A stretch of DNA of 64,000 nucleotides from an uncultured Candidatus Saccharibacteria bacterium (GTDB lineage Bacteria > Patescibacteriota > Saccharimonadia > Saccharimonadales > JAUPVS01), in the NCBI GenBank assembly GCA_964627095.1, contig CAZVKH010000001.1, forward strand, positions 8,451 to 72,450, written 5' to 3'. The position numbers and the translations under genes are program-made. Of this stretch, positions 4,056 to 57,287 are shown piece by piece. A model generated the notes under the pieces. The model was not told the DNA's origin, ran no database searches, and was given only the letters and a program-made list of their open reading frames with translations. Numbering within the stretch: position 1 is the stretch's first letter; each line of letters starts with the position of its first letter.

Positions 4056-5894
4056 ATGAAAAAACTTATCCACTATTTCAAGACTTACAAACACTTGGGC
4101 ATCGTCATCCTAGCCATAATTATGGCCGGAGCACTCGACCTAGGTGGCTACGAACGCTATGCCAACATTGTTTTAGGCGTAACCGCTTCGTTATCGGTTA
4201 TTCCATTACTCCTAGGCATGGTTCAAGACTTACGGGACGGCCAGTACGGTGTTGATATCCTTGCCGCCACCGCCATCATTTCTTCGGTGGCTCTGGGTGA
4301 ATACTGGGCCGGTATTGTTGTCGTATTAATGTTAACTGGTGGTGAATCGCTCGAAGATTACGCCGAACACCGGGCTAAGACCGAACTCGATGCCTTGCTC
4401 AGCCGAGCACCAAAGAAAGCTCACATTCTAAAAGGCAATAAGGTTACTGATGTGCTGGCCAGCAAGGTTCAGACCAACGACAAGCTTATTATTAAGCCCG
4501 GTGAGTTGGTGCCAGTCGATGCCGTTGTCATCGAAGGTCATGCCAGTCTTGACGAATCTAGCCTAACCGGTGAAAGCTTGCCGGTCGAAAAACACGCTGG
4601 CGATGAGCTACTCAGTGGTTCGGTTAACCTGGATGGCGTTCTGACCGTTAAAGCACTGCGACCGGCCGCCGACAGTCAGTACGAACAAATCATTAAGCTG
4701 GTGCGCGGTGCAGCCAGTAACCAATCACCATTTGTACGCCTGGCCGATAAATATAGTATTCCCTTCACGATTGTTGCCTACACCATCGCTATTAGCGTCT
4801 GGGTGGCTTCAGGTGACCCAATTAGATTTTTGCAAGTAATTATTGTCGCCACCCCTTGCCCACTATTACTAGCGGCGCCAATCGCATTAATATCCGGAAT
4901 GAGCCGAGCAGCGCGTCACGGTATTATAATTAAAACTGGCTCGGCCTTAGAAAAACTGGCTCAAGTAAAAACTATTGCCCTCGACAAAACCGGTACGTTA
5001 ACGGTAGGTAAGCCAGTTGTTGGTTCGATCAAGACTTTCAATAAACATAGTCAAAATAGTGTCCTGTCAGCAGCGGCCAGCCTTGAACAGGATTCAAACC
5101 ACATTTTAGCCAAGGCCGTTGTTGCCAAAGCCAACCAGGCAAACATTAAGACCTCTAAGGTAAAGAGCCTGCGTGAAGAAGCTGGTTACGGGTTAAGCGG
5201 CCTGGTTAACCGACAGCCTGTTTTAGTTGGCAATGCCTCACTCTTGCTTAAGCACGACGTTGACCTACCCAAGAAACTCCAAGACATGGCGGCCACAACC
5301 GCCTTTGTCGCCATAGACGGCGTCCTGGCTGGTACAATTGAATTTACCGATGAAGTCCGCCCGGAGTCTAAGTCAACGCTTCAGAGGCTCCGTGATGCCG
5401 GTGTACAGCACATTCTTATGATCACCGGCGATAACGTTGCAAGCGCCAAAGCAATTGCCAAAAAAGTTGGCATAAAAGATGTTCGAGCCAACTGCTTACC
5501 AGCCGACAAATTAACTGCTGTCGAAAATATTACCAACCGACCAGTTGCTTTTGTGGGTGATGGCGTTAACGACGCACCAGTTCTGACAGCCTCGGATGTT
5601 GGCATTGCTCTGGGTGCACGTGGCTCAGCGGCGGCCAGTGAATCAGCTGATGTAGTAATTATGCTCGACGACTTTGGTCGAGTCGCCACATCTGTAGAAA
5701 TCGCCAAGCGCACCTTCTTTATTGCTAAGCAAAGTATCCTGATTGGCATTTTTATTAGCGTCGGCTTAATGTTAATTTTTGCCACCGGTAAATTTAAGCC
5801 TATTTATGGTGCTGCTCTGCAAGAAGTCGTTGACGTGGCGGTTATCTTTAATGCCTTACGTGCCCACGGTTCTTGGCGCAAAAAAACTAGCTAG
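4056..5894 (+). CDS. P1B-type heavy-metal-translocating P-type ATPase lacking an N-terminal metal-binding domain
   Basis: Motifs TGES (actuator), TPCPLL (TM6 PCP/CPx-like), DKTGTLT (phosphorylation site), GDGVNDAP (hinge), SNHILA (HP-like). The ORF-track start at 4038 is TTG. ATG at 4056 is preceded by TAGGAA. Confidence 0.8.
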   Translation: MKKLIHYFKTYKHLGIVILAIIMAGALDLGGYERYANIVLGVTASLSVIPLLLGMVQDLRDGQYGVDILAATAIISSVALGEYWAGIVVVLMLTGGESLEDYAEHRAKTELDALLSRAPKKAHILKGNKVTDVLASKVQTNDKLIIKPGELVPVDAVVIEGHASLDESSLTGESLPVEKHAGDELLSGSVNLDGVLTVKALRPAADSQYEQIIKLVRGAASNQSPFVRLADKYSIPFTIVAYTIAISVWVASGDPIRFLQVIIVATPCPLLLAAPIALISGMSRAARHGIIIKTGSALEKLAQVKTIALDKTGTLTVGKPVVGSIKTFNKHSQNSVLSAAASLEQDSNHILAKAVVAKANQANIKTSKVKSLREEAGYGLSGLVNRQPVLVGNASLLLKHDVDLPKKLQDMAATTAFVAIDGVLAGTIEFTDEVRPESKSTLQRLRDAGVQHILMITGDNVASAKAIAKKVGIKDVRANCLPADKLTAVENITNRPVAFVGDGVNDAPVLTASDVGIALGARGSAAASESADVVIMLDDFGRVATSVEIAKRTFFIAKQSILIGIFISVGLMLIFATGKFKPIYGAALQEVVDVAVIFNALRAHGSWRKKTS

Positions 5895-6541: not shown

Positions 6542-7516
6542 CTACTTATTGGGCCTAAGATCTAGGAAGTTAGCGCTTTGTAAGTTCTGTAACTGGCGTG
6601 GTGCAATGTCGAAGGTTGGTCGCTTAACATGAGTTGCAACCGAACGTCTCTGCAAGACTGGCTCAATAAAGGCCGGGCGGGGTGCTGGCTGCGGTGACAC
6701 CTTGGGGGCCGGTGGCAACTGTGATGGGTGTTTTCGGCGCTGTTCTTTGGCAGCAGCCTGTGCAGCGGCATACTTTTTGGCCGCCTTGGCCCGGCGATTT
6801 GCTTTTCGGTTAGCTAGATACACAAAGAATACCGACAAGTTATACAGCAGTATTATCGGTAGAGCGATTAGGAATTGCGTTAGTGGGTCGTAGGTAAATG
6901 GCAAAACCAGGGCCAGGGCCAAACTGCCGACAATAACGTGGCGCTCGTACTTAAGCAGCTTGCGCGGTGACATCGGCTTGATGTGGTTGATGAACAAAAT
7001 AAGCAAAGGCAACTGGAACAGTAATATAAACGTCAGTATGCAAGCCAGTGCGAAGTTAAGGTAGTCGTCGGCTGATATAAGCGGATTAACACCTGTGATT
7101 TCGACACCCTGAAAGAAATGCAAGGACATTGGTAAGGCGCCAAAATATGCAAAGGCGGCGCCGGCTACTCCTAGGGTCAAGGAAAGAAGCGTCACCATGG
7201 TAATAAGGCGGCGGGTGATTTTTTTACCAACAGCTGGTTCAATAAACGATATTATATTGTAGATTAGAGCCGGTATAGCCAGGGTTATGCCCAGGATAAA
7301 GCAGATCTTCATAATAAAGTTGAACCCACCAGCCGGCGTGGTGTAGTAAAGCTGCTGGTTGAGCGGGGCCGTCATAAAGACGATTAGCTGATCATGAAAC
7401 ATATAGGCCACACCGGCACCCACTAGCAATAGCAATGCTGGCCAGGTCAGCCGGCGACGCAGTTCCTGGACATGTCCAGAAAAAGTTAGCTTTGGTTCCA
7501 TGATCTGCCCATCCAT
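6542..7516 (-). CDS. tatC: Sec-independent protein translocase TatC (with basic/Pro-rich C-terminal tail)
   Basis: N-terminal LTFSGHVQELRRRL motif, six predicted TM helices, TatC-like topology. Confidence 0.85.
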   Translation of the reverse strand: MDGQIMEPKLTFSGHVQELRRRLTWPALLLLVGAGVAYMFHDQLIVFMTAPLNQQLYYTTPAGGFNFIMKICFILGITLAIPALIYNIISFIEPAVGKKITRRLITMVTLLSLTLGVAGAAFAYFGALPMSLHFFQGVEITGVNPLISADDYLNFALACILTFILLFQLPLLILFINHIKPMSPRKLLKYERHVIVGSLALALVLPFTYDPLTQFLIALPIILLYNLSVFFVYLANRKANRRAKAAKKYAAAQAAAKEQRRKHPSQLPPAPKVSPQPAPRPAFIEPVLQRRSVATHVKRPTFDIAPRQLQNLQSANFLDLRPNK

Positions 7517-7543
7517 CTCGAAGACCTCTCGTTTAGTTATGGA

Positions 7544-7726
7544 CTAGGCTTTTTTGGTGGCTTTTGACTTAGTAGCAGGCTCTGGTTCGTCGGCATCTGC
7601 AAAACCTTTGCGGATTTCTTTAGCCGACTGACCGACACTGCGTGCTAGTTCTGGTAGCTTTTTAGCACCAAACAGCAACAAAACAATCAATAAAACGATA
7701 ATTAATTCGTCTGTTTTTCCAAACAT
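7544..7726 (-). CDS. tatA: Twin-arginine translocase subunit TatA/E
   Basis: 60 aa: N-terminal TM helix ELIIVLLIVLLLFGAKKLPELARSVGQSAKEIRKG, then an acidic/basic tail. Confidence 0.85.
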   Translation of the reverse strand: MFGKTDELIIVLLIVLLLFGAKKLPELARSVGQSAKEIRKGFADADEPEPATKSKATKKA

Positions 7727-8234: not shown

Positions 8235-8723
8235 ATGATTTATATACAACACACATTCAAGATGTTTATGGGCAAAGTTTCGGCCTCTATTGTGGTGTTT
8301 TTGTTTGTTGCTGGGATGGTTCTTACGCCGGCTTCTGCTTTGGCAGCCACTCCCGACTATAGTTGCGGGGCTTACGGTGGCAACGACTATAACAGTAACT
8401 GTCCAACCGACCCTAGTACCCCTAGCTCAAGTAGCAGTTCCTCTAGCAGCTCGACTGGCAGTAGTTCTAGCGACGGAGCGGCGGCCGACACGCCGACAAC
8501 TTCGGATACTACAACTACAACCGACGACAGCACCGCTATCGATACAAACGACAAAAGTTCTTCTACCACCAAGACAGCTGCCGAAGAAGAAGCTGGTACG
8601 TCTAATAGCAGCCGCTGGCTTTTGTTCGGCTTCTCGCTCTTTCTGCTCCTGCTAGCTCTATGGCTGATCTTCTTCTTGCTCAAGCGCCGCAAGCGCCAGC
8701 AAGAAGACAAACCAATGTTCTAG
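8235..8723 (+). CDS. Secreted Ser/Thr-rich low-complexity surface protein with C-terminal TM anchor and basic tail
   Basis: Signal peptide (…VVFLFVAGMVLTPASALA), poly-Ser/Thr linker, C-terminal hydrophobic segment plus KRRKRQQ (cell-surface anchoring architecture without LPXTG). Confidence 0.5.
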   Translation: MIYIQHTFKMFMGKVSASIVVFLFVAGMVLTPASALAATPDYSCGAYGGNDYNSNCPTDPSTPSSSSSSSSSSTGSSSSDGAAADTPTTSDTTTTTDDSTAIDTNDKSSSTTKTAAEEEAGTSNSSRWLLFGFSLFLLLLALWLIFFLLKRRKRQQEDKPMF

Positions 8724-9061: not shown

Positions 9062-9508
9062 TTAGTCGAGTGCTCGGGCTTGCTGGATCTGTTGCATGAG
9101 GTGACATTTGTCGCCTCCCTCCTCAAAAATTTCACACGCCACCGGGCGCTCTTCGTAAATTCCGCAGTGCTCCCAGCCGTCTTGATCGGTTTCAAGATAC
9201 TTGCAGTCATTCAGCAATACGTACCGACCAAGATTTGCCGCCAATGGTTCGGTTGGTCGCTCAGGGTCAACATAGTAAGTTTTCATACCTGTTTCGGGGT
9301 CCCATTCAAGACCACGCGGATAGGGTGCATCCGGGCGAGCCTTTGGCGATGGCAAGGGAACCGTCAGAAACTTGTTACCCGGTCGAGTCATAAGGGCGAC
9401 TTCTTGAAATGTCAGATCGAATATTTCGTTAGCCCGGCAGCAAGCCGCTTGACACTCATTGCAGTCGTCAACTGGTTCAGATGAAATTTGGATTGGAATT
9501 CTGGACAT
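9062..9508 (-). CDS. YkgJ/UPF0153-family putative Fe-S/zinc-chelating protein (CxxCxxCC)
   Basis: 148 aa, N-terminal CNECQAACC motif plus further Cys residues. Leaderless start behind a TCATGCTTGCA promoter. Confidence 0.55.
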   Translation of the reverse strand: MSRIPIQISSEPVDDCNECQAACCRANEIFDLTFQEVALMTRPGNKFLTVPLPSPKARPDAPYPRGLEWDPETGMKTYYVDPERPTEPLAANLGRYVLLNDCKYLETDQDGWEHCGIYEERPVACEIFEEGGDKCHLMQQIQQARALD

Positions 9509-9540
9509 ATTCTACGATTATTGAGCCATCTACGGTCGTT

Positions 9541-9552
9541 TGCAAGCATGAG
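9541..9552 (-). promoter_or_regulatory. Extended -35 motif CTCATGCTTGCA of the promoter for the 9062..9508 gene
   Basis: -35 TTGCAA, 17 nt, -10 AATAAT, then 8 nt to the ATG at 9508. Confidence 0.5.
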
Positions 9553-9572
9553 AGAATTGGAAGCGACTGCCT

Positions 9573-9690
9573 GGCGGCACATTTCGTCGCGGGCTCGGTG
9601 CCAGCACCTGCGCGCGCTCCTCATGAGCGCACCTTCGACTACTGTCTGCTGCGCAGCCAAGTCGAAGAACCGGCGTCTTGCTCACTGGCA
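9573..9690. other. tRNA-adjacent conserved structured element, copy C (divergent; candidate ncRNA/cis element)
   Basis: Shares GGC-GCACAT…GCTCGG-[hairpin]-CCTGCGC…TTCGA with copies A and B. The hairpin arms GGTGC/GCACC covary with GGAAT/ATTCC. It lies between the terminator of tRNA-Pro and the promoter of the YkgJ-like gene. Confidence 0.4.
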
Positions 9691-9692
9691 AA

Positions 9693-9728
9693 GAAAAAGA
9701 GCCATCCTTATGGATGACTCATTTTCTT
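9693..9728. terminator. Bidirectional rho-independent terminator (A-run, GAGCCATCC-TTAT-GGATGACTC, T-run) 3' of tRNA-Pro
   Basis: 9-bp stem with one mismatch, flanked by AAAGAAAAA and ATTTTCTTT. Confidence 0.6.
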
Positions 9729-9805
9729 TGGTCGGGGTGAAAGGACTCGAACCTTCGACCTCACGGTCCCAAACCGCGCGCGCTAGCCAACTGCGCCACA
9801 CCCCG
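9729..9805 (-). tRNA. tRNA-Pro (anticodon TGG)
   Basis: Acceptor CGGGGTG/CACCCCG, D arm GCGC-AGTTGGCTA-GCGC, anticodon stem CGCGG/CCGTG with loop TTTGGGA, T arm GAAGG-TTCGAGT-CCTTT, CCA encoded. Confidence 0.85.
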
Positions 9806-25241: not shown

Positions 25242-26750
25242 TTAACTTTCGCTGAAGACTTTTTGGACTAATTCAAGTTGCCTTTGGTTAGTCGGATCAA
25301 ACTTAGCCTTAAATACTAGGTCAAGCATCGCCGGGTCGTTTTTATACTTTTCCCAAAATGTGACAACTCGCTGCTTACCCTCTAAGTATGCCAAGTCTTT
25401 GTTAAATGTAAGTAGGTGATGCTCCCCGTCAGAAAGTCTATCATCAACGCTGGTTGGCGTGCCTCTAAATATTCGAACGCAGCCCGCGTAAGTGTTGTTT
25501 TGAGCGGTAGAAATTTGTTTTTCAGTTGGCTCTTCGCCGCTTTGAGCTTTTATCAACACTCGTGCCCGCCAAAGTGTTTCGAATACCTTGCGAAAGTCAT
25601 TTCCTTCGTAAGCTAAACCGTAGGCTGCATATCGCTCCAGATTCGGTGCATCCCAACTCGTATCCTCACCTGTTGTTGCTTTCTCGCAAGTCGAAGCAAA
25701 ACCTTCTTCGAAAGTCAGGTAGTCACTTACTTCGCCAGGTTCGGCAGCCGTGTATAGCCCCGTCCCAACCACCGGAATATCTGTCTCGATGCCACTCATG
25801 GCCCGGCCAGCATGAACTATGTATTCGTGCACTACTTTACTTAACATCTCTTTTGCAGAAGAAATAGGACCACGCTTGCCACCAATTACTACAGCCATCT
25901 GTTCTGTTTCCCAAGAAAGTGCAGTCGCCGATGGGTCGATAAGCACTTGGATTCCAGAACTATTATCAGGGTCACGCTGTTGATGAATAAGACTAAAGAT
26001 AGCGTACATATCATCGACGGTAAAATGCTGTTCTTCCGTCGGTCTTGGCTTAACATTTTCGTCCCAATACCGTAATATAGTCGGCTCAAGATCTGGGTTA
26101 TCGCTCAAGACTTTCTCATCCAGATAATCGAGTAGTTCTTGAGGTAGTGGCTTAAGTGGCTCGGCATCATTACGCTTAAGTGGAGATACGACGATAGATT
26201 TGCCTGCAACTTCTACCACAAAGCCATGTTCTAGCTCTTGCTTGAGTTGTTGCCCAACTCCAACCAACTCCTTGCCATCAATCTGACGCCAAATTTCACT
26301 TACTACGCCAGCGTACAAGTCTTGATCGGGTTTGCCGTACAGCTGTTCGTTCAGGTTTTGAACATAGCTAGCCCGGCGATCAAGTTCGTCTTCTGACATC
26401 GTAAAGTGGCCATCAATAAGTTCTTTGGCGCTTAGCAACCAATACATCTCGGCCATTCGATAAGCTGCGCTGTCCCAAATTGCCTCTTTGGCAGTCTGGT
26501 CGGGCTGCGCCTCGGCTAGTTTTAGAACCTCACCCAGAACAGATATGCCATTTCTTAGTTCGTTTTCATCTAAAACTGGGTAATCAAGGGTGGGGTTAAC
26601 AACATCGCCTGCGAGAAAATCATCTCTTTGTTGAGCCCGCTCATCTTTGTCGCCCGCCAAACGTTTATACGACTGAAATGCGATTTCAGGAGTATTGAGA
26701 GGATGGAGTTGTTCGCGTAGCGAGACTCCTTCAAGAAGTATCTCTGACAT
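25242..26750 (-). CDS. Hypothetical protein (503 aa; possible DUF1704-like), leaderless
   Basis: ATG at 26750 (MSEILLEG…) directly follows TTATAAT. The longer ORF-track N-terminus would run through the conserved element and the tRNA-Lys terminator. Confidence 0.5.
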   Translation of the reverse strand: MSEILLEGVSLREQLHPLNTPEIAFQSYKRLAGDKDERAQQRDDFLAGDVVNPTLDYPVLDENELRNGISVLGEVLKLAEAQPDQTAKEAIWDSAAYRMAEMYWLLSAKELIDGHFTMSEDELDRRASYVQNLNEQLYGKPDQDLYAGVVSEIWRQIDGKELVGVGQQLKQELEHGFVVEVAGKSIVVSPLKRNDAEPLKPLPQELLDYLDEKVLSDNPDLEPTILRYWDENVKPRPTEEQHFTVDDMYAIFSLIHQQRDPDNSSGIQVLIDPSATALSWETEQMAVVIGGKRGPISSAKEMLSKVVHEYIVHAGRAMSGIETDIPVVGTGLYTAAEPGEVSDYLTFEEGFASTCEKATTGEDTSWDAPNLERYAAYGLAYEGNDFRKVFETLWRARVLIKAQSGEEPTEKQISTAQNNTYAGCVRIFRGTPTSVDDRLSDGEHHLLTFNKDLAYLEGKQRVVTFWEKYKNDPAMLDLVFKAKFDPTNQRQLELVQKVFSES

Positions 26751-26792
26751 ATACATATTATAACATAATAGAATGAGTTTTACGATGCCACT

Positions 26793-26890
26793 GGGGCAAC
26801 GCACATCTACGGCCTTGCTCGGAATGCATTCCTGCGCATGGCCTTGATGACCGAACCCCGGCTGCGCCGTTTGGGTTCTCGGCGCGTGCT
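26793..26890. other. tRNA-adjacent conserved structured element, copy A (candidate ncRNA/cis element)
   Basis: About 75 nt nearly identical to 53732..53806. Nested helices CATC/GATG, GGCC/GGCC, GGAAT-GC-ATTCC. Lies between the tRNA-Lys terminator and the leaderless 25242..26750 gene. Confidence 0.5.
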
Positions 26891-26891
26891 C

Positions 26892-26928
26892 CATGAAAAA
26901 AGCCGAACACAAGGTTCGACTGTTTTCA
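26892..26928. terminator. Bidirectional terminator hairpin (CATGAAAAAAGCCGAAC-ACAAG-GTTCGACTGTTTTCATG) 3' of tRNA-Lys
   Basis: About 17-bp imperfect stem containing A/T tracts. Confidence 0.55.
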
Positions 26929-27005
26929 TGGAGGGCCCACTGGGACTCGAACCCAGGACACCCTGCTTAAAAGGCAGGTGCTCTAACCGGCTGAGCTATG
27001 GGCCC
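26929..27005 (-). tRNA. tRNA-Lys (anticodon TTT)
   Basis: Acceptor GGGCCCA/TGGGCCC, D arm GCTC-AGCCGGTTA-GAGC, anticodon stem CCTGC/GCAGG with loop CTTTTAA, T arm CTGGG-TTCGAGT-CCCAG, CCA encoded. Promoter TTGACT-17-TAATGT lies upstream. Confidence 0.9.
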
Positions 27006-53715: not shown

Positions 53716-53731
53716 GGCTTTTGGCGGGGCA

Positions 53732-53830
53732 GGGCAACGCACATCTGCAGCCATGCTCGGAATATATTCCTGCGCGTGGCTTTGATGACCGAACCTGGGC
53801 TACGCCCGACGGTTCAAGTCTTCTCTGTGA
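53732..53830. other. tRNA-adjacent conserved structured element, copy B (candidate ncRNA/cis element)
   Basis: About 75 nt nearly identical to copy A. Helix 2 covaries (AGCCA/TGGCT versus GGCC/GGCC). Palindrome GGAATATATTCC. Confidence 0.5.
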
Positions 53831-53833
53831 CCA

Positions 53834-53868
53834 AGAAAAAAGACCCTTCTTGTGAAGAGTCTCTTTTC
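53834..53868. terminator. Bidirectional rho-independent terminator (A-run, GACCCTTC-TTGT-GAAGAGTC, T-run) 3' of tRNA-fMet
   Basis: 8-bp stem, AAGAAAAAA upstream, TCTTTTCTT downstream. Confidence 0.6.
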
Positions 53869-53943
53869 TTGGTAGCGGGGGCAGGACTCGAACCTGCGAC
53901 CTCGTGGTTATGAGCCACGCGAGCTGCCACTGCTCCACCCCGC
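53869..53943 (-). tRNA. Initiator tRNA-fMet (anticodon CAT)
   Basis: 5' CGCGGGGTGGAGCAG identical to E. coli tRNA-fMet. C1 is unpaired with T72. Anticodon loop CTCATAA. CCA encoded. Confidence 0.85.
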
Positions 53944-54024
53944 GTCGAGTTGAGCAAGCTATAGCATACCAGATGAAAGCTACTTATACAACATCGGTGG
54001 GAAATGTGGTAGAGTATCTTCACT

Positions 54025-54726
54025 ATGACCGATATGCTCGCTCCTTCAGCCGAAGCCGAAAAATTGCCAACAGATGACCCGACAACCATACTAGCACTTG
54101 AAGCACGCGACTTATTACTCGCCGCCAGCCAAGCCGAACCGGGCAGCCCGGATGAGGTAGCCGCCCTAGAGGAAGCCAATAGTCGCTTTAGCGAGCTGGT
54201 TAGCGAAACCCAGGAATTCCTTACCAAATTTGCTCTGAGCCGCCCCCACCCCAGGCATTTTGATGTGCAAGAAGTAGTCCAGGAAACCTACGCCCGAGCC
54301 TATAAGGGTTTACATAATTTTAGGGGTGACGCCAAGTTTTCTACGTGGCTATTTTACGTTTTGCGCAGCTGTACTGATAACTACTGGAGACGCGAGGCAC
54401 GTCACAACAATCAGCCCCTACCCGAAGAAGACGGTTCAGATCCATCCTTGGTTGGTAGTATTGCCGTGGTGTCATCATTAGATACTGGCGAGGTCGACAG
54501 CTTTTTGGACTACAGTAGCCTTTCGCCGGAACTAGAAGCAATGCTGGCCACTTTAAGTCCCAAGCAACAACAAGCTATTCGTATGCATGACGTAATGGGA
54601 CAAACCACTAAAGAATGTGCCGCGCAACTAGGTGTTAGTGAAATTAGTTTTAAGATGAACGTACACCGGGCTCGCCATAACCTACGCCGCGAATTCCCCG
54701 ATGCCAGAAACTGGTTAGAAGAATAA
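54025..54726 (+). CDS. ECF-type RNA polymerase sigma factor with ~55-aa N-terminal extension
   Basis: Sigma70 region 2 (…YARAYKGLHNFRGDAKFSTWLFYVLRSCTDNYWRR) and region 4 (…QQQAIRMHDVMGQTTKECAAQLGVSEISFKMNVHRARHNLRREF). Confidence 0.8.
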   Translation: MTDMLAPSAEAEKLPTDDPTTILALEARDLLLAASQAEPGSPDEVAALEEANSRFSELVSETQEFLTKFALSRPHPRHFDVQEVVQETYARAYKGLHNFRGDAKFSTWLFYVLRSCTDNYWRREARHNNQPLPEEDGSDPSLVGSIAVVSSLDTGEVDSFLDYSSLSPELEAMLATLSPKQQQAIRMHDVMGQTTKECAAQLGVSEISFKMNVHRARHNLRREFPDARNWLEE

Positions 54727-54728
54727 TC

Positions 54729-54756
54729 TTGACAAATTAGCAACTTCATGTATAAT
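54729..54756 (+). promoter_or_regulatory. Near-consensus sigma70 promoter TTGACA-16-TATAAT (with upstream TG)
   Basis: TTGACA at 54729-54734, TGTATAAT at 54749-54756. Confidence 0.7.
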
Positions 54757-54814
54757 ACTTAGTGTTGTCATGACAAAACAAACAACAAAATAAAACAACA
54801 GGAAACTACACACA

Positions 54815-54898
54815 ATGAAATCACAACTCGCCTACGAGTTCGCCCAAACCCAAGATCAGGCAGTTTCACAATTTGACGATCTAATCTCATCTTTGTAA
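54815..54898 (+). CDS. 27-codon ORF (MKSQLAYEFAQTQDQAVSQFDDLISSL) between its own promoter and terminator; micro-protein or small-RNA gene
   Basis: Shine-Dalgarno AGGAAA 8 nt upstream of the ATG. Bounded by a consensus promoter and an intrinsic terminator. Confidence 0.35.
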   Translation: MKSQLAYEFAQTQDQAVSQFDDLISSL

Positions 54899-54924
54899 AC
54901 CTACTCGATCAAACTCCCATAAAA

Positions 54925-54956
54925 GAGCCCTTTAAGCGCAAAGGGTTCTTTTTATT
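54925..54956 (+). terminator. Rho-independent terminator (GAGCCCTTT-AAGCGC-AAAGGGTTC + TTTTTATT)
   Basis: 9-bp stem including one G:U pair, followed by a T-run. Confidence 0.7.
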
Positions 54957-55034
54957 GCCGTTCGCCTTTCAGCTAGCTGGTCAACAGAGGCAAAACATGG
55001 TATATTCACTGCTGTCCATGTAACAAGTTTATAG

Positions 55035-55111
55035 GGCGGCGTAGCTCAGTTGGTTAGAGCACAGGACTCATAAGCCTGGGGTCACAAGTTCAAATCTTGT
55101 CGCCGCTACCA
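55035..55111 (+). tRNA. Elongator tRNA-Met (anticodon CAT)
   Basis: Closely resembles E. coli elongator tRNA-Met (…GTTGGTTAGAGCAC…CTCATAA…GGGGTCACAAGTTCAAATC…). CCA encoded. One A:G mismatch at 31:39. Confidence 0.75.
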
Positions 55112-55167
55112 AACTTATTTGATATCGCTTGTGTTTAACCCCGTTTGGGGTAATAATAAACGGTATT

Positions 55168-55842
55168 ATGGATATGGATCTTAAACCCCCGACGCAGCCC
55201 AAATATCAGCTTAAGGAAACTCCGCCACCCGGCGCAACGCCACCTGAACCGCAGATGGACGACCCCTTTAAAGTTGATCCGCCACCACCCGAACTAACCG
55301 TACCTAAACCAAAGAAAAAACGCAGCGGCAAAGCTAAAAAGGCTTTGCTGGTTATTTTAGTATTGGCTCTGCTTGGTGCGGCCGGCTATGGTATTTACTA
55401 CTGGCAACACCAGCAAGTCGACAAACTAGCTAAAGAAAACCAGGCTCTAACCGCCCAACTAGCTGCCGCCAATAAAAAAGCTAGTGATGCCGAAGCCGAG
55501 AACGCCAAGCTTAGCGAAGCAGCCACCCCGCCAACGGCCGATACTTTGGTAATTACGGCTGCTACCGCCGATTGCCAGGCCGAGGTTGACCCAGCCACTA
55601 AGAAGGCTTTGGTATACACCCAAGGCACGCAAGGCACTGACAAAAAGAAAGTGCTGTATTCGACTGATAAGACCTTTGCCAAGGTTAGCGCTACCTGTGC
55701 TGCCACCGCTAACGCCACCGAGCCAGCCACGCTGTACTATGCTAAATTAGCCGGTACTACCTGGACGGTCATCTATGCTGACACCGCCGAGCCCGACGCC
55801 GACGTAACTGCTTTGTACGCCATCCCAACTGAATTCAAATAA
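55168..55842 (+). CDS. Single-pass membrane protein with Pro-rich N-terminus and Ala/Thr-rich extracytoplasmic domain
   Basis: The ORF-track start at 55129 is TTG. ATG at 55168/55174. TM LLVILVLALLGAAGYGIYYW. Confidence 0.5.
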   Translation: MDMDLKPPTQPKYQLKETPPPGATPPEPQMDDPFKVDPPPPELTVPKPKKKRSGKAKKALLVILVLALLGAAGYGIYYWQHQQVDKLAKENQALTAQLAAANKKASDAEAENAKLSEAATPPTADTLVITAATADCQAEVDPATKKALVYTQGTQGTDKKKVLYSTDKTFAKVSATCAATANATEPATLYYAKLAGTTWTVIYADTAEPDADVTALYAIPTEFK

Positions 55843-55843
55843 A

Positions 55844-55876
55844 AGAACCGGCCTCTGGAAGCCGGTTCTTAATTTT
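55844..55876. terminator. Bidirectional terminator AGAACCGGC-CTCTGGAA-GCCGGTTCT + TTAATTTT
   Basis: 9-bp perfect stem between convergent genes. Confidence 0.7.
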
Positions 55877-55891
55877 ACGTTAACTCTTTAA

Positions 55892-56296
55892 TTAAGAGTC
55901 TTCGCGTAGCTCGCCACCATGAACGATCAATGCGTAAAGCACCAATACGTCGATCAGGATGGCAGCGAGTGACCAGACTGGGTAGGCTGGAATAAACGCC
56001 ATGCTAGTCAGCAATGATACAGTTGTCACGATAACGGCAACGATGCGACCAAACAAGTGGCCCGAAAGTACCGAGAAACCAGCGAACAATAGAATCATCG
56101 CCAAAACTAGTTGACCCCAGCCCCAAGCTGTAAAGTTAAAGACTGCTAGGTGCTGTTCGGTAACAACGTAGAATGAACTACGAGTTAATGAAACGATGCC
56201 CAGGAATGCCTCGAAAAAGGCGCGCACGATCAGAAGTATACCGGCAAAGTATACCCAGCCGACCCATCCAGATGGTTGTGTTGTTGGTTTAGCCAT
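55892..56296 (-). CDS. Hypothetical four-TM membrane protein
   Basis: 134 aa. Confidence 0.45.
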   Translation of the reverse strand: MAKPTTQPSGWVGWVYFAGILLIVRAFFEAFLGIVSLTRSSFYVVTEQHLAVFNFTAWGWGQLVLAMILLFAGFSVLSGHLFGRIVAVIVTTVSLLTSMAFIPAYPVWSLAAILIDVLVLYALIVHGGELREDS

Positions 56297-56361
56297 AAAA
56301 GCCCTCCTTAGTTGATGATTAAATCATCTCGCTTACTGGAATTTTTGTCAAGGAAGTTGCC

Positions 56362-56676
56362 TTAACGCTTATGCTTTTCAGTATGAGATTCGGCACGGGC
56401 TTGCATTTTTTGACCACGCTTCTTTACAAAGGCGTTTATAAAGGCACCAAAAATAGCAATTCCTAGCAGAATGTAGATGGTCGTAAATAACTTACCGGCA
56501 TCGGTTTTGGGCGTAATGTCGCCATACCCAACAGTGGTTAGGGTGACGATGCAAAAATAGTAGGCATCGACCCAGCCCCACTTTTCGACAAAGTGATAGA
56601 AAGCCATGCCAACCCCCAACACTGCGAAAGTAATGGTTAGTAGTAGCCTGTACATATAGCGGTCAAGTGGGTTCAT
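56362..56676 (-). CDS. Minimal two-TM potassium channel (pore domain only, TVGYGD selectivity filter)
   Basis: 104 aa: TM1, pore helix, TTVGYGDITP, TM2. Confidence 0.75.
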   Translation of the reverse strand: MNPLDRYMYRLLLTITFAVLGVGMAFYHFVEKWGWVDAYYFCIVTLTTVGYGDITPKTDAGKLFTTIYILLGIAIFGAFINAFVKKRGQKMQARAESHTEKHKR

Positions 56677-56691
56677 TGGTTTCTCCTGTAA

Positions 56692-57150
56692 TTATTTATC
56701 TGTCTGGCGATGTTGGAAAAAGTCCATCCAGGCTTGAAAGTTGCGCTGGAAAGTCGATACTACCACAGCTGGCTGAGCGGCCTTATTTTGCTCTTTGGAC
56801 ATATCAACAGTGTTGGCCAGCGCCACCCGCTTGGGCACCAAAACCAGTTTTTCATTAGGGGCGGCCTTGCCGAACTGGCGCCGGGCGGCTAGTTCCAGGA
56901 ATTGGTTGGTATTGTAGTACTGATTGGCTAGCTTTTGGTTATTATTCTGGAGATCCAGCACCTGGTTTTCTTGCTGTATAGCCGAGATTTGCTTTTGCAG
57001 GCCGTAGTTAGTCTGAATAGCCGAGATTGTACTCCAGCTTACTAACAGGGCAATGCCGGCAAAGATTAAAAGCCCCACCACGCGCACGTCTTGGAGTTGC
57101 TTAAAATAGGGATGGTTTTGGATATTTTTGATTTTACTGTTCATGAACAT
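56692..57150 (-). CDS. Septum-formation-initiator (FtsB/DivIC)-like single-TM coiled-coil protein
   Basis: N-terminal TM followed by a Gln/Asn-rich coiled coil. 152 aa. Confidence 0.4.
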   Translation of the reverse strand: MFMNSKIKNIQNHPYFKQLQDVRVVGLLIFAGIALLVSWSTISAIQTNYGLQKQISAIQQENQVLDLQNNNQKLANQYYNTNQFLELAARRQFGKAAPNEKLVLVPKRVALANTVDMSKEQNKAAQPAVVVSTFQRNFQAWMDFFQHRQTDK

Positions 57151-57211
57151 TTTTATTATACAATCCTTTGCCCAAAATCTGCTATACTCACTCTGTTAAT
57201 ACCACGACCAC

Positions 57212-57287
57212 GGGGGTGTAGCTCATCGGTCAGAGCAGGCGGCTCATAACCGCTTGGTAGATGGTTCAACTCCATCCACCCCCACCA
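57212..57287 (+). tRNA. tRNA-Ile2 (anticodon CAT, lysidine-modified type)
   Basis: Anticodon arm GGCGG-CTCATAA-CCGCT-TGGTA closely matches E. coli tRNA-Ile2 (GGCGA-CTCATAA-TCGCT-TGGTC). tilS is present in the window. Confidence 0.7.

Follow-up and report, generated by a model that had tools for sequence, protein, structure and literature searches.

Between a tRNA-Pro gene and an apparently leaderless gene in contig CAZVKH010000001.1, from an uncultured Candidatus Saccharibacteria bacterium, lies a GC-rich sequence dense in hairpins. Is it a member of a genuine family of structured elements, and if so, what is the family built from and what might it do? We addressed these questions in a 64,000-nt stretch of the contig (the window; all positions are window-based, and L-numbers denote loci or contigs from outside it). 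An initial annotation of this DNA had described the sequence as copy C, a divergent third copy of an element that also occurs in the window as copies A and B. The element belongs to a family of units in which the 3' half of the neighboring tRNA is duplicated in inverted orientation, with a covarying hairpin inserted exactly at T-loop position 58. We tentatively read the unit as a putative small structured non-coding RNA, to which we give a probability of roughly 45%, and weigh this below against recombination-based and other explanations.

A covarying hairpin in the 3' flanks of tRNA genes

The three copies share the spacing GCACAT-N10-GCTCGG-N8-CCTGCGC-N7-TSATGA-SCGMACC. Each lies on the + strand beside a tRNA 3' flank, and is followed by a bidirectional terminator and then a convergent tRNA gene (tRNA-Pro for C, tRNA-Lys for A and tRNA-Met for B); by covariance model, the window holds exactly these three. 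All the motifs that the initial annotation named for copy C are present where it had placed them, among them GCTCGG (9593-9598), CCTGCGC (9607-9613) and a tip hairpin with arms GGTGC (9597-9601) and GCACC (9604-9608) around the loop CA. The order it gave for copy C, of tRNA, terminator, element and the promoter of a leaderless gene, is also correct. Its alignment of C to A and B at GGCGGCACAT holds in part: GCACAT is common to all three copies, but the rest differs, A and B reading CAACGCACAT. This 10-mer has its sole exact occurrence in the window at 9573-9582, and when one mismatch is allowed its frequency is not above chance. A and B carry GGAAT-NN-ATTCCTGCGC (26821-26837 and 53759-53775), for which shuffles expect 0 occurrences.

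Homologs were collected by pattern scans. In species-representative genomes, GCACAT-N10-GCTCGG-N8-CCTGCGC gave 25 matches, 4 of them true (L014, L017, L022 and L025), and metagenome contigs, scanned with a second pattern, yielded about 20 more that are true; the covariance model also finds further copies within the fetched loci. A model from 22 homologs scores copy C at 66.1 bits (E ~6e-15), so that its likeness to A and B greatly exceeds chance, and copy C is a true, diverged paralog of the element. The named carrier contigs are labeled Candidatus Saccharibacteria, Saccharimonadales or Patescibacteria, with the exception of L017, which is labeled Limnocylindria. The L017 unit (7540-7720) is a true one at 64.5 bits on a contig of a Candidatus Limnocylindria (Chloroflexota) metagenome-assembled genome, and reflects either a binning error or an extension of the family beyond Saccharibacteria. 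Two pattern scans of viral contigs returned no true copy; the second pattern was too loose, and all 120 of its loci were chance matches.

These sequences allowed the central claim of the initial annotation, that pairing and not primary sequence is under selection, to be followed across the family, and for the hairpin termed here P2 it holds. Aligned over the 60-nt core, the 22 sequences show P2 to be 90% paired; both sides have changed in 8 of the pairs, a count that 0 of 500 shuffles reach. Among 31 distinct homologs, in an alignment that was fitted to the covariance model and so somewhat favors structure, P2 is 89% paired and 13 of its 18 pairs are changed on both sides (95 cells); 0 of 500 shuffles are as high for cell count and covariation score, and 1 of 500 for pair count. 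Sliding the 3' partners by 1-3 columns lowers pairing from 89% to 24-48%, and the covariation is therefore no alignment artefact.

The tip of P2 illustrates the point most directly. Three positions of the copy C tip had been described as changed relative to A and B and repaired on the partner arm, and the corresponding variable pairs (AU/UA, GC/AU, CG/UA) are 100% complementary in the 22 homologs. Six variants of the tip arms occur (GGAAU/AUUCC, GGUGC/GCACC, GGAGC/GCUCC, GGAGU/ACUCC, GGAAC/GUUCC and GGUAC/GUACC), with zero mismatches in the 22-sequence alignment and 2 unpaired cells in one tip pair among the 31 sequences. GGUGC/GCACC, the version in copy C, recurs in the clear A-type homologs L014 and L025, and the near-invariant G:C beside the loop becomes A:U in 5 sequences of the 31-sequence alignment. 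Between the covarying stems lies an almost invariant internal loop, GC-U-CGG / CC-U-G-C-GC, with an invariant U/C mismatch and a U bulge.

The element corresponds to no family in the resources searched. At gathering thresholds, Rfam finds only 8 tRNAs in the whole window, and Rfam 15 E-value scans of copy A, copy C and L028 gave terminator-driven noise only, far below threshold. ARAGORN and Rfam RF00005 call the flanking true tRNAs, never the units, and find no tmRNA. Several known RNAs were compared by eye and rejected, with Rfam and ARAGORN in agreement: 5S rRNA, with which UGCCUGGCGGC and CCGAAC are common; signal recognition particle RNA, tmRNA including its permuted forms, RNase P and the T-box; and the hammerhead, since UGAUGA is followed by a stem but no GAAA is present. 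A search of the literature on structured RNAs or tRNA-linked islands of Saccharibacteria found nothing relevant. As far as Rfam and the literature searched show, the element is undescribed.

Each unit is an inverted duplication of the neighboring tRNA 3' half

When a tRNA is divided into parts a (1-44), b (45-57) and c (59-76), k-mer matching of each locus to its own tRNA gives one order at every locus. Read in tRNA orientation, this is a, b, c, terminator, inverted b (then a degenerate inverted c), loop, b, P2, c and host flank. The unit measures about 150-190 bp, contains no open reading frame (ORF), and is an inverted duplication of the neighboring tRNA 3' half (~45-76: variable loop, T-arm, acceptor 3' strand and CCA). 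Into this duplication P2, a hairpin of ~47 nt, is inserted exactly at T-loop position 58, in the place of A58. The duplication consists of two helices, P3 formed by b' and b and P1 formed by c' and c, which leaves P2 as the sole part without an origin in the tRNA; CGAACC, invariant in the core, is complementary to the T-loop GGTTCG. This tRNA origin of the arms was absent from the initial annotation. The construction, in which the 3' half of the adjacent tRNA is duplicated in inverted form and interrupted at T-loop position 58 by a conserved hairpin, is likewise undescribed in Rfam and the literature searched.

Directly 5' of the core, L026, L028, L033, L034, L037 and L044 carry an exact copy of the tRNA 3' end, 15-18 nt long and far above shuffles, which spans CCA, discriminator, acceptor 3' strand and T-stem 3' strand; the repeats stop at the T-loop. 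The b and c blocks are specific to tRNA type. L026, beside tRNA-Val, has GGTCGGGGGTTCG and GTCCCTCATCACCCACCA (13+18 nt), and further exact blocks, for which shuffle controls were run, measure 14+16 nt in L034, 12+14 nt in L028 and 13 nt in L031. In the three units of the window the 3'-end repeat is degraded, in copy C to a deleted remnant, and no distal exact tRNA 3'-end copies were found within the window.

Lineages with a short P3 share one design for this helix, CCGGC-NNN-GCCG between GAACCC and GGGTTC, and carry it beside different tRNAs (Lys at copy A, Gln at L038 and Ser at L030). The L030 unit (2185-2320) has an 8-bp P1, GAAGUGGG/CCCACUUC, that pairs perfectly and has no match to the adjacent tRNA-Ser. 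Units thus relocate or outlive their donor, with P1 kept as a helix, and judging from its sequence the L030 unit seems to have come from another tRNA locus. A predicted three-way junction of P1, P2 and P3 is the best explanation for this build. When applied to full-length A-type units, RNAalifold recovers P2 but not P1 or P3, and closes P2 with an "antisense T-stem" (CAGG/CCUG) instead, so that the higher-order fold is not settled.

Copy C and its subfamily

Copy C retains the tRNA-derived build in weathered form. The 5' arm of its P3 derives from the T-arm region of tRNA-Pro, its reverse complement GTCGAAGGTGCG aligning with GTCGAAGGTTCG of the tRNA (p=0.004); the b-arm alignment pairs the reverse complement of 9628-9641, TAGTCGAAGGTGCG, with AGGTCGAAGGTTCG of tRNA-Pro (p=0.004), and k-mers of P3 match tRNA-Pro in both orientations. 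For segment c', the local alignment GTCGAAG..GT-CTT..TCAC against the tRNA-Pro 3' half reaches p=0.08, and the same pattern is seen family-wide. Segment c by itself has no significant match to tRNA-Pro (p=0.6). We read it as a c remnant because the related contig L171 opens with CGCTTTCACCCCG, matching CTTTCACCCCG of tRNA-Pro, immediately ahead of the promoter sequence CTCATGCTTGCAAAC, as in the window; the L171 ortholog of the gene at 9062-9508 is 86% identical.

Two hairpins had been described as additions of copy C not seen in A or B. One of them, CTTCGAC...GTCGAAG, stands where A and B have P3 (GAACC...GGTTC) and is no addition. The other, GCGCTC-CTCAT-GAGCGC, is specific to the subfamily of copy C, but as a re-pairing and not an insertion, since it aligns to the lower-P2 3' strand and the UGAUGA segment of A and B. 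The hairpin that copy C has truly added is P0, which had been overlooked. The covariation argument for copy C is sound, and its "extra hairpins" were misread.

The subfamily comprises copy C, L027, L031/L040/L042, L034, L036 and L039, with L028 intermediate. P0 sits directly before CAUUU and reads UGCC/GGCA in copy C, GUUCGC/GCGAAC in L031, GCUGCC/GGCAGC in L039 and GGCAAC/GUUGCC in L028. In copy C the lower P2 is weakened, with 5 of 8 P2b pairs and 3 of 4 P2a pairs left. Lower P2 (9587-9592 with 9614-9619, and 9580-9582 with 9623-9625) and GCGCTC-CTCAT-GAGCGC exclude each other. RNAalifold, run on 7 subfamily members, predicts 5 pairs for the CTCAT hairpin; two sequences compensate (GUUC/GAAC) and two break the pairing. 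The hairpin is therefore a weak candidate, plausible as an alternative pairing that would compete with the lower P2.

Members of the subfamily differ in what surrounds the core. L027 has a C-type core 96% identical to copy C, without the P3 3' arm, terminator or tRNA and with unrelated flanks, and the number of extra genes between the c fragment and a 148-aa gene is 0 in the window, 1 in L171 and 3 in L027. In L039, a single unit (4731-4842) contains two apical P2 modules (GCUCGG-tip-CCUGCGC), the second within the P3 region, which makes the module appear self-contained.

Conservation at tRNA-fMet, tandem arrays and serine-recombinase islands

The 75-nt tRNA-Met(CAT) gene beside copy B can be read as the initiator tRNA-fMet, and its locus is syntenic among diverged Saccharibacteria. 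All 11 syntenic tRNA-fMet loci in a small sample (window B, L022, L028, L031, L034, L037, L039, L174, L178, L182 and L185) carry a unit convergent to the tRNA, and there is no empty site. L174, L178, L182 and L185 are long contigs fetched via FtsB-like homologs; short contigs were not scorable. The FtsB-like neighbor is 47-56% identical to the window protein in L028, L031, L034, L037 and L039, and 97% in L022, and core identity to copy B among the diverged fMet loci is 57-78%. In Saccharibacteria, whose tiny genomes contain very little non-coding sequence, a structured, GC-rich element that stands at every initiator-tRNA locus examined, beside neighbors only ~50% identical, likely does something. 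In the window, three tRNA-Met(CAT) genes lie within 3.4 kb (53870-57287) around an FtsB/DivIC-like gene (56692-57150); this arrangement is kept in at least 10 other Saccharibacteria contigs, and the element occurs only at the 75-nt initiator-like tRNA.

Over shorter distances these loci are fluid. Window B, L022 and L043 are close relatives with cores of 93-97% identity; their c copies range from exact through partly deleted to nearly absent, and each has a different upstream flank. Several loci contain tandem units with cargo between them, and the cargo is without recombinases. In L037 it spans 6 kb and includes a GDSL lipase, a HigB-like toxin and the corresponding antitoxin; in L049 it comprises a YafQ toxin, a RelB antitoxin and a methyltransferase. 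L185 (9631-12861) has three nearly identical tandem units beside tRNA-fMet, with pyrF and pyrE between units 1 and 2 and a 243-aa ORF in the other gap; pyrF (OMP decarboxylase) and pyrE (phosphoribosyltransferase) represent housekeeping-type cargo in a cassette-like position. L031 and L040 possess a second, degenerate unit.

The left ends of the cargo share a ~17-nt motif close to TACATTCGAATTGGAAC (L039 4954-4970, L185 11613-11629 and 12698-12714, and L017 7730-7746), with weaker matches in L037 and L174. The motif follows directly after a terminator and a truncated tRNA 3'-end copy (cTTGGTAGC; TTGGTAG…) in L039 (TTGGTTGC), in L017 and at one of the two L185 junctions; different sequence lies next to the second L185 junction and the weaker L037 matches. 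In L039 it ends an island whose opposite end is a large serine recombinase gene abutting tRNA-fMet, and the motif looks like the island-side half of a serine-recombinase attachment site. A similar recombinase island stands at another tRNA-Met in L178-L181.

These islands (L039 4940-9915; L178 3248-6933, also in L179-L181) encode large serine recombinases with Resolvase, Recombinase and Zn-ribbon domains at tRNA-Met 3' ends. The recombinase ORF as called extends over the tRNA 3' end in L178-L181, and in L039 an ORF continuing the recombinase gene enters the tRNA. Other island genes encode a Schlafen/AlbA_2 ATPase, an HNH/WYL protein and DUF5681. Across units, cargo and scanned flanks, the only integrases or recombinases found were these large serine recombinases, in separate islands that lack a unit. 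The simplest reading of the junctions is that such islands would insert at any terminator/tRNA 3'-end junction, whether that of a tRNA or that of a unit. A copy of the tRNA 3' end in each unit multiplies the attachment sequence and turns the loci into insertion hotspots, and insertion of islands into the 3'-end copies explains the cargo without P2 taking part.

Resemblance to known systems

Among mobile elements, a close parallel is with tRNA-gene islands that carry partial-tRNA repeats, such as the tycheposons of Prochlorococcus (bioRxiv 10.1101/2020.12.28.424599). The unit likewise lies between an intact tRNA and a displaced 3'-end copy, and the two share tandem arrays split by partial tRNA copies, cargo between the repeats and variable flanks. 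Islands are recognized by a distal repeat, in direct orientation, of the tRNA 3' end, and such a repeat is found in the same six loci that retain exact 3'-end copies. Unlike tycheposons, the unit is only ~150-190 bp, has neither integrase nor ORF, and adds an inverted tRNA 3' half and a covarying hairpin at position 58; and whereas tycheposons are rare and transient, the unit occupies every orthologous tRNA-fMet locus examined.

Integron attC sites offer a second comparison. Like attC, P2 is an imperfect hairpin whose structure and unpaired bases are kept while its sequence varies, and it is repeated between cargo beside a fixed anchor. By contrast with attC, the arms of the unit copy the adjacent tRNA, the units of one array are nearly identical, and the ends of the cargo bear the serine-recombinase island motif. 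Compared by eye with the R''/R' boxes (RYYYAAC / GTTRRRY), ACCGAAC/GTTCGGT agree at 6 of 7 positions, but this is T-loop sequence of the tRNA. No IntI or attI was seen, nor any tyrosine recombinase among the flanking genes scanned. REP/REPIN and MITE sequences resemble the unit as short, GC-rich, structured intergenic inverted repeats, often beside terminators. They differ in that the unit has only three copies in 64 kb, all in tRNA 3' flanks, with locus-specific arms, and no REP-associated transposase was seen.

The unit also recalls RNAs that reuse parts of tRNA. YrlA/Y RNA (PMC4201824) and the tRNA-like domain of tmRNA join T-arm/acceptor modules to a separate protein-binding helix, as the unit would if P2 binds a protein. 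In the unit, unlike in these RNAs, the tRNA parts occur in both orientations, pair mutually and form no T-arm, and the arms copy a specific neighboring tRNA. Guide RNAs form a further class for comparison. IS110 bridge RNAs and the H/ACA guides of archaea and eukaryotes are bipartite guide RNAs, in which the guide pocket leaves the target nucleotide unpaired beneath an upper stem, and bridge RNAs carry segments matching both strands of their target. On its + strand, the unit reads in a similar manner as the complement of tRNA 59-76, a hairpin and the complement of 45-57, with nucleotide 58 left unpaired and both target strands matched. Its arms are 13-18 nt, however, and not 4-9 nt as in bridge RNAs and H/ACA guides, and older copies, including those of the window, have lost complementarity while keeping P2. 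Neither an IS110-type (DEDD) recombinase nor a Cbf5-type protein was found among the neighbors scanned, a search that did not extend genome-wide, and no ACA box or K-turn was recognized in the unit alignment.

An RNA or a DNA element

Our preferred reading, that the unit is a small structured RNA, draws on the strong covariation of P2 and its invariant loop residues, on retention over deep divergence and on high GC content; copy C is the most GC-rich 130-nt stretch in the window (0.65 vs a mean of 0.485). Copies A and B fold better than their shuffles (z = -2.6 and -2.2), and the P3 tip of L031 is cUUCGg. A terminator follows each unit, with terminator-like sites after A and C on the + strand. 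A TAnnnT-type (-10-like) hexamer ends 0-8 nt upstream on the + strand at ~17 of 24 loci, a count made by eye in which several flanks are mutually homologous; a consensus scan at copies A and C gave no + strand promoter. The + strand would be the likelier transcript; it would run toward the tRNA and stop at the bidirectional terminator that the two share. In this RNA P2 would act as a protein-binding hairpin held by the two tRNA-derived helices P1 and P3, and the multiplied recombinase attachment sequence would be a side effect or a second role of the unit. Transcription, its strand, protein binding and any cellular role are what we infer from these features. If the unit is indeed an RNA, it would represent a new family of tRNA-derived non-coding RNAs in a phylum of the uncultivated majority.

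Other observations weigh against a simple RNA gene. Copy C folds no better than shuffles (z = -0.9), and the folding energy of the family is equal on both strands, with a mean difference of 0.14 kcal/mol and the + strand better in 13 of 23. Once one conserved U.G column is set aside, G.U pairs are no more frequent than A.C pairs (9 against 12). The shared terminator hairpins score better on the tRNA strand, and copy B and L014 leave no room for a + promoter of their own, as a stop codon or another terminator abuts the unit. The tip is complementary down to a 2-nt center, which fits an RNA no better than a palindrome or hairpin of DNA, and three features are hallmarks of recombination and not of an RNA gene: the directly repeated tRNA 3' end, the tandem arrangement of units and the intervening cargo. 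The evidence leaves the strand of the element undecided and permits RNA and DNA only to be weighed against each other, with RNA favored over a DNA hairpin.

The strongest alternative, which we nevertheless consider unlikely, is a recombination module acting at the DNA level. The unit would then be the attachment region, itself structured, of a cassette system or miniature integrative element with tRNA 3' ends as its target. The recombinase would be encoded elsewhere and would recognize the fold that P2 and the inverted repeats from the tRNA adopt, either in single-stranded DNA or in a cruciform, comparable to integron attC sites and the folded attP of CTX phage. Recombination of a b-P2-c-terminator-b'-loop circle inside the last 16-18 nt of the tRNA 3' end would give the observed layout exactly. 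This layout recurs at every locus as tRNA, terminator, inverted copy, loop, direct copy with P2, 3'-end repeat and host flank, and the 16-18-nt repeats end at the T-loop. Further support comes from the cargo-separated tandem units (toxin-antitoxin pairs, methyltransferase, lipase, pyrF/pyrE), from the near-identical cores of window B, L022 and L043 between differing upstream flanks and with 3'-end copies from exact to nearly lost, and from the C-type core of L027 among unrelated flanks. The single P3 design beside Lys, Gln and Ser tRNAs, the lack of strand asymmetry and the conserved unpaired bases in a hairpin of variable sequence point the same way.

Against such a module, no recombinase of hairpin DNA was found near any unit among the cargo and flanking genes scanned. 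The recombinases that are present are of the large serine type, which acts on duplex DNA, and the L039 and L178 islands lack a unit. With TACATTCGAATTGGAAC shared by the cargo ends, insertion of serine-recombinase islands into 3'-end copies suffices, with no role for P2. The lack of any empty site at the 11 tRNA-fMet loci and of any copy in the viral contigs scanned also counts against it, and the near identity of units inside one array is unlike independent cassettes. Were this explanation nonetheless correct, the unit would be a new kind of structure-defined recombination site. The element joins structured RNA motifs and tRNA-targeted genome plasticity, which are usually treated apart.

That the unit has no function is improbable. 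On this view, a selfish or decaying repeat would have been left behind as a scar at tRNA 3' ends, where integration and fold-back duplication recurred, and its structure would have no role. The 3'-end copies do decay quickly in the lineage of the window, L031 and L040 have their degenerate second units, and L027 retains a truncated core only. Yet neutral decay fails to explain 13 of 18 compensated pairs and an invariant loop across lineages whose flanking proteins are ~50% identical, nor does it fit the occupancy of all 11 syntenic loci.

A programmable platform addressed to tRNA, whether guide-like or integron-like, is a speculative reading that we hold to be a similarly long shot. In one version, a transcript or folded strand would present both strands of the tRNA 3' half, split at position 58, and P2 would recruit a protein acting there on the tRNA gene or the tRNA; in the other, Saccharibacteria would have an integron-like cassette system with tRNA-fMet as its anchor and P2 as its attC-like site. 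If true, this reading would account at once for arms matched to the tRNA, for exact copies of 16-18 nt, for arrays of units and cargo and for the presence of a unit at every tRNA-fMet locus examined. Four further ideas were set aside, as no fitting insertion geometry or partner protein was found for them: an IS200/IS605-type single-strand transposon inserting after TTCG; a primer-binding site of retroviral type, for reverse transcription primed by tRNA; an H/ACA-like guide aimed at position 58; and a sponge that takes up tRNA 3' halves.

A cis-regulatory role, as a riboswitch-like 5' untranslated region on the minus strand, is very improbable. It was suggested by the leaderless-looking minus-strand genes that follow copy A (start 26750) and copy C (9508..9062). 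At C, however, a scan places a promoter-like sequence between the element and the ATG, and at A a TATAAT-like box is visible there by eye only, where the scan found none; the element thus likely lies outside those transcripts. Copy B and L014 moreover face the 3' end of a convergent gene, and the flanking genes are unrelated, differing even among close relatives. Finally, that the covariation of copy C reflects misalignment or chance resemblance is hardly credible: the 10-mer GGCGGCACAT alone is not significant and the minimum-energy fold of copy C misses the lower P2, but the 66-bit score, the identical spacing of A, B and C, the GGUGC/GCACC tips of L014 and L025 and the collapse of pairing in the slid-partner controls all oppose it.

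Features of the window and neighboring genes

Table 1. Positions of the three copies, the segments of copy C and adjoining features in the window
Feature	Position	Strand	Remarks
Copy A	26786..26895, core 26798-26857	+	Followed by terminator 26901-26921 and tRNA-Lys 26929-27005 (-)
Copy B	53725..53835, core 53736-53795	+	Followed by terminator and tRNA-Met(CAT) 53870-53944 (-)
Promoter-like site TTGCAA-17-AATAAT for leaderless gene 9508..9062	9517..9545 (9545-9517)	-	Consensus scan; precedes ATG at 9508
Copy C, segment c remnant: internally deleted direct copy of tRNA-Pro 3' end	9552..9567	+	Reads TTGGAAGCGAC, reverse complement GTCGCTTCCAA
Copy C, extra 5' hairpin P0, TGCC-TGGC-GGCA	9568..9579	+	Equivalent hairpins at same position in subfamily
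Copy C, conserved core: P2 and T-loop-derived CGMACC	9574..9633	+	Covariance model R1, 66.1 bits, E 5.7e-15
Copy C, apical P2: internal loop GC-U-CGG / CC-U-G-C-GC flanking tip hairpin GGTGC-CA-GCACC (9597-9608)	9593..9613	+	Loop residues nearly invariant; tip pairs covary among homologs
Copy C, subfamily hairpin GCGCTC-CTCAT-GAGCGC (arms 9614-9619, 9625-9630)	9614..9630	+	RNAalifold prediction, 7 subfamily members
Copy C, hairpin P3: CTTCGAC (9633-9639)...GTCGAAG (9661-9667), inner stem CTGC-TGC-GCAG	9633..9667	+	Homologous to P3 of A/B; both arms from tRNA-Pro ~45-57
Copy C, segment c': degenerate sense-orientation copy of tRNA-Pro 3' end	9668..9691	+	Ends GGCA before terminator A-tract; p=0.08
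Bidirectional intrinsic terminator common to element and tRNA-Pro, stem 9699-9720	9692..9728	.	9 pairs on minus strand, 5 pairs on plus strand
tRNA-Pro(UGG), donor of copy C arms	9729..9805	-	ARAGORN and Rfam

The minus-strand genes that start at 26750 and 9508 appear leaderless, with a -10-like box a few bases before the ATG and no Shine-Dalgarno sequence (26740-26790 and 9505-9550). Similar leaderless starts adjoin the tRNA 3'-end copy in L043, L045, L037 and L185. A program-called ORF of 556 aa (25242-26912) crosses copy A, and its true start is probably the ATG at 26750; the protein from this start has a sub-threshold match only, to a tyrosine-carboxypeptidase-like family (MATCAP).

Upstream of copy C, a 162-aa ORF (8235-8723) has an N-terminal signal-like segment, a long low-complexity region rich in Ser, Thr and Asp and a C-terminal hydrophobic anchor, and is overlapped by long spurious ORFs on both strands. 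Two adjacent genes at 6542-7726 resemble, from their sequence by eye alone, TatC (324 aa) and TatA (60 aa).

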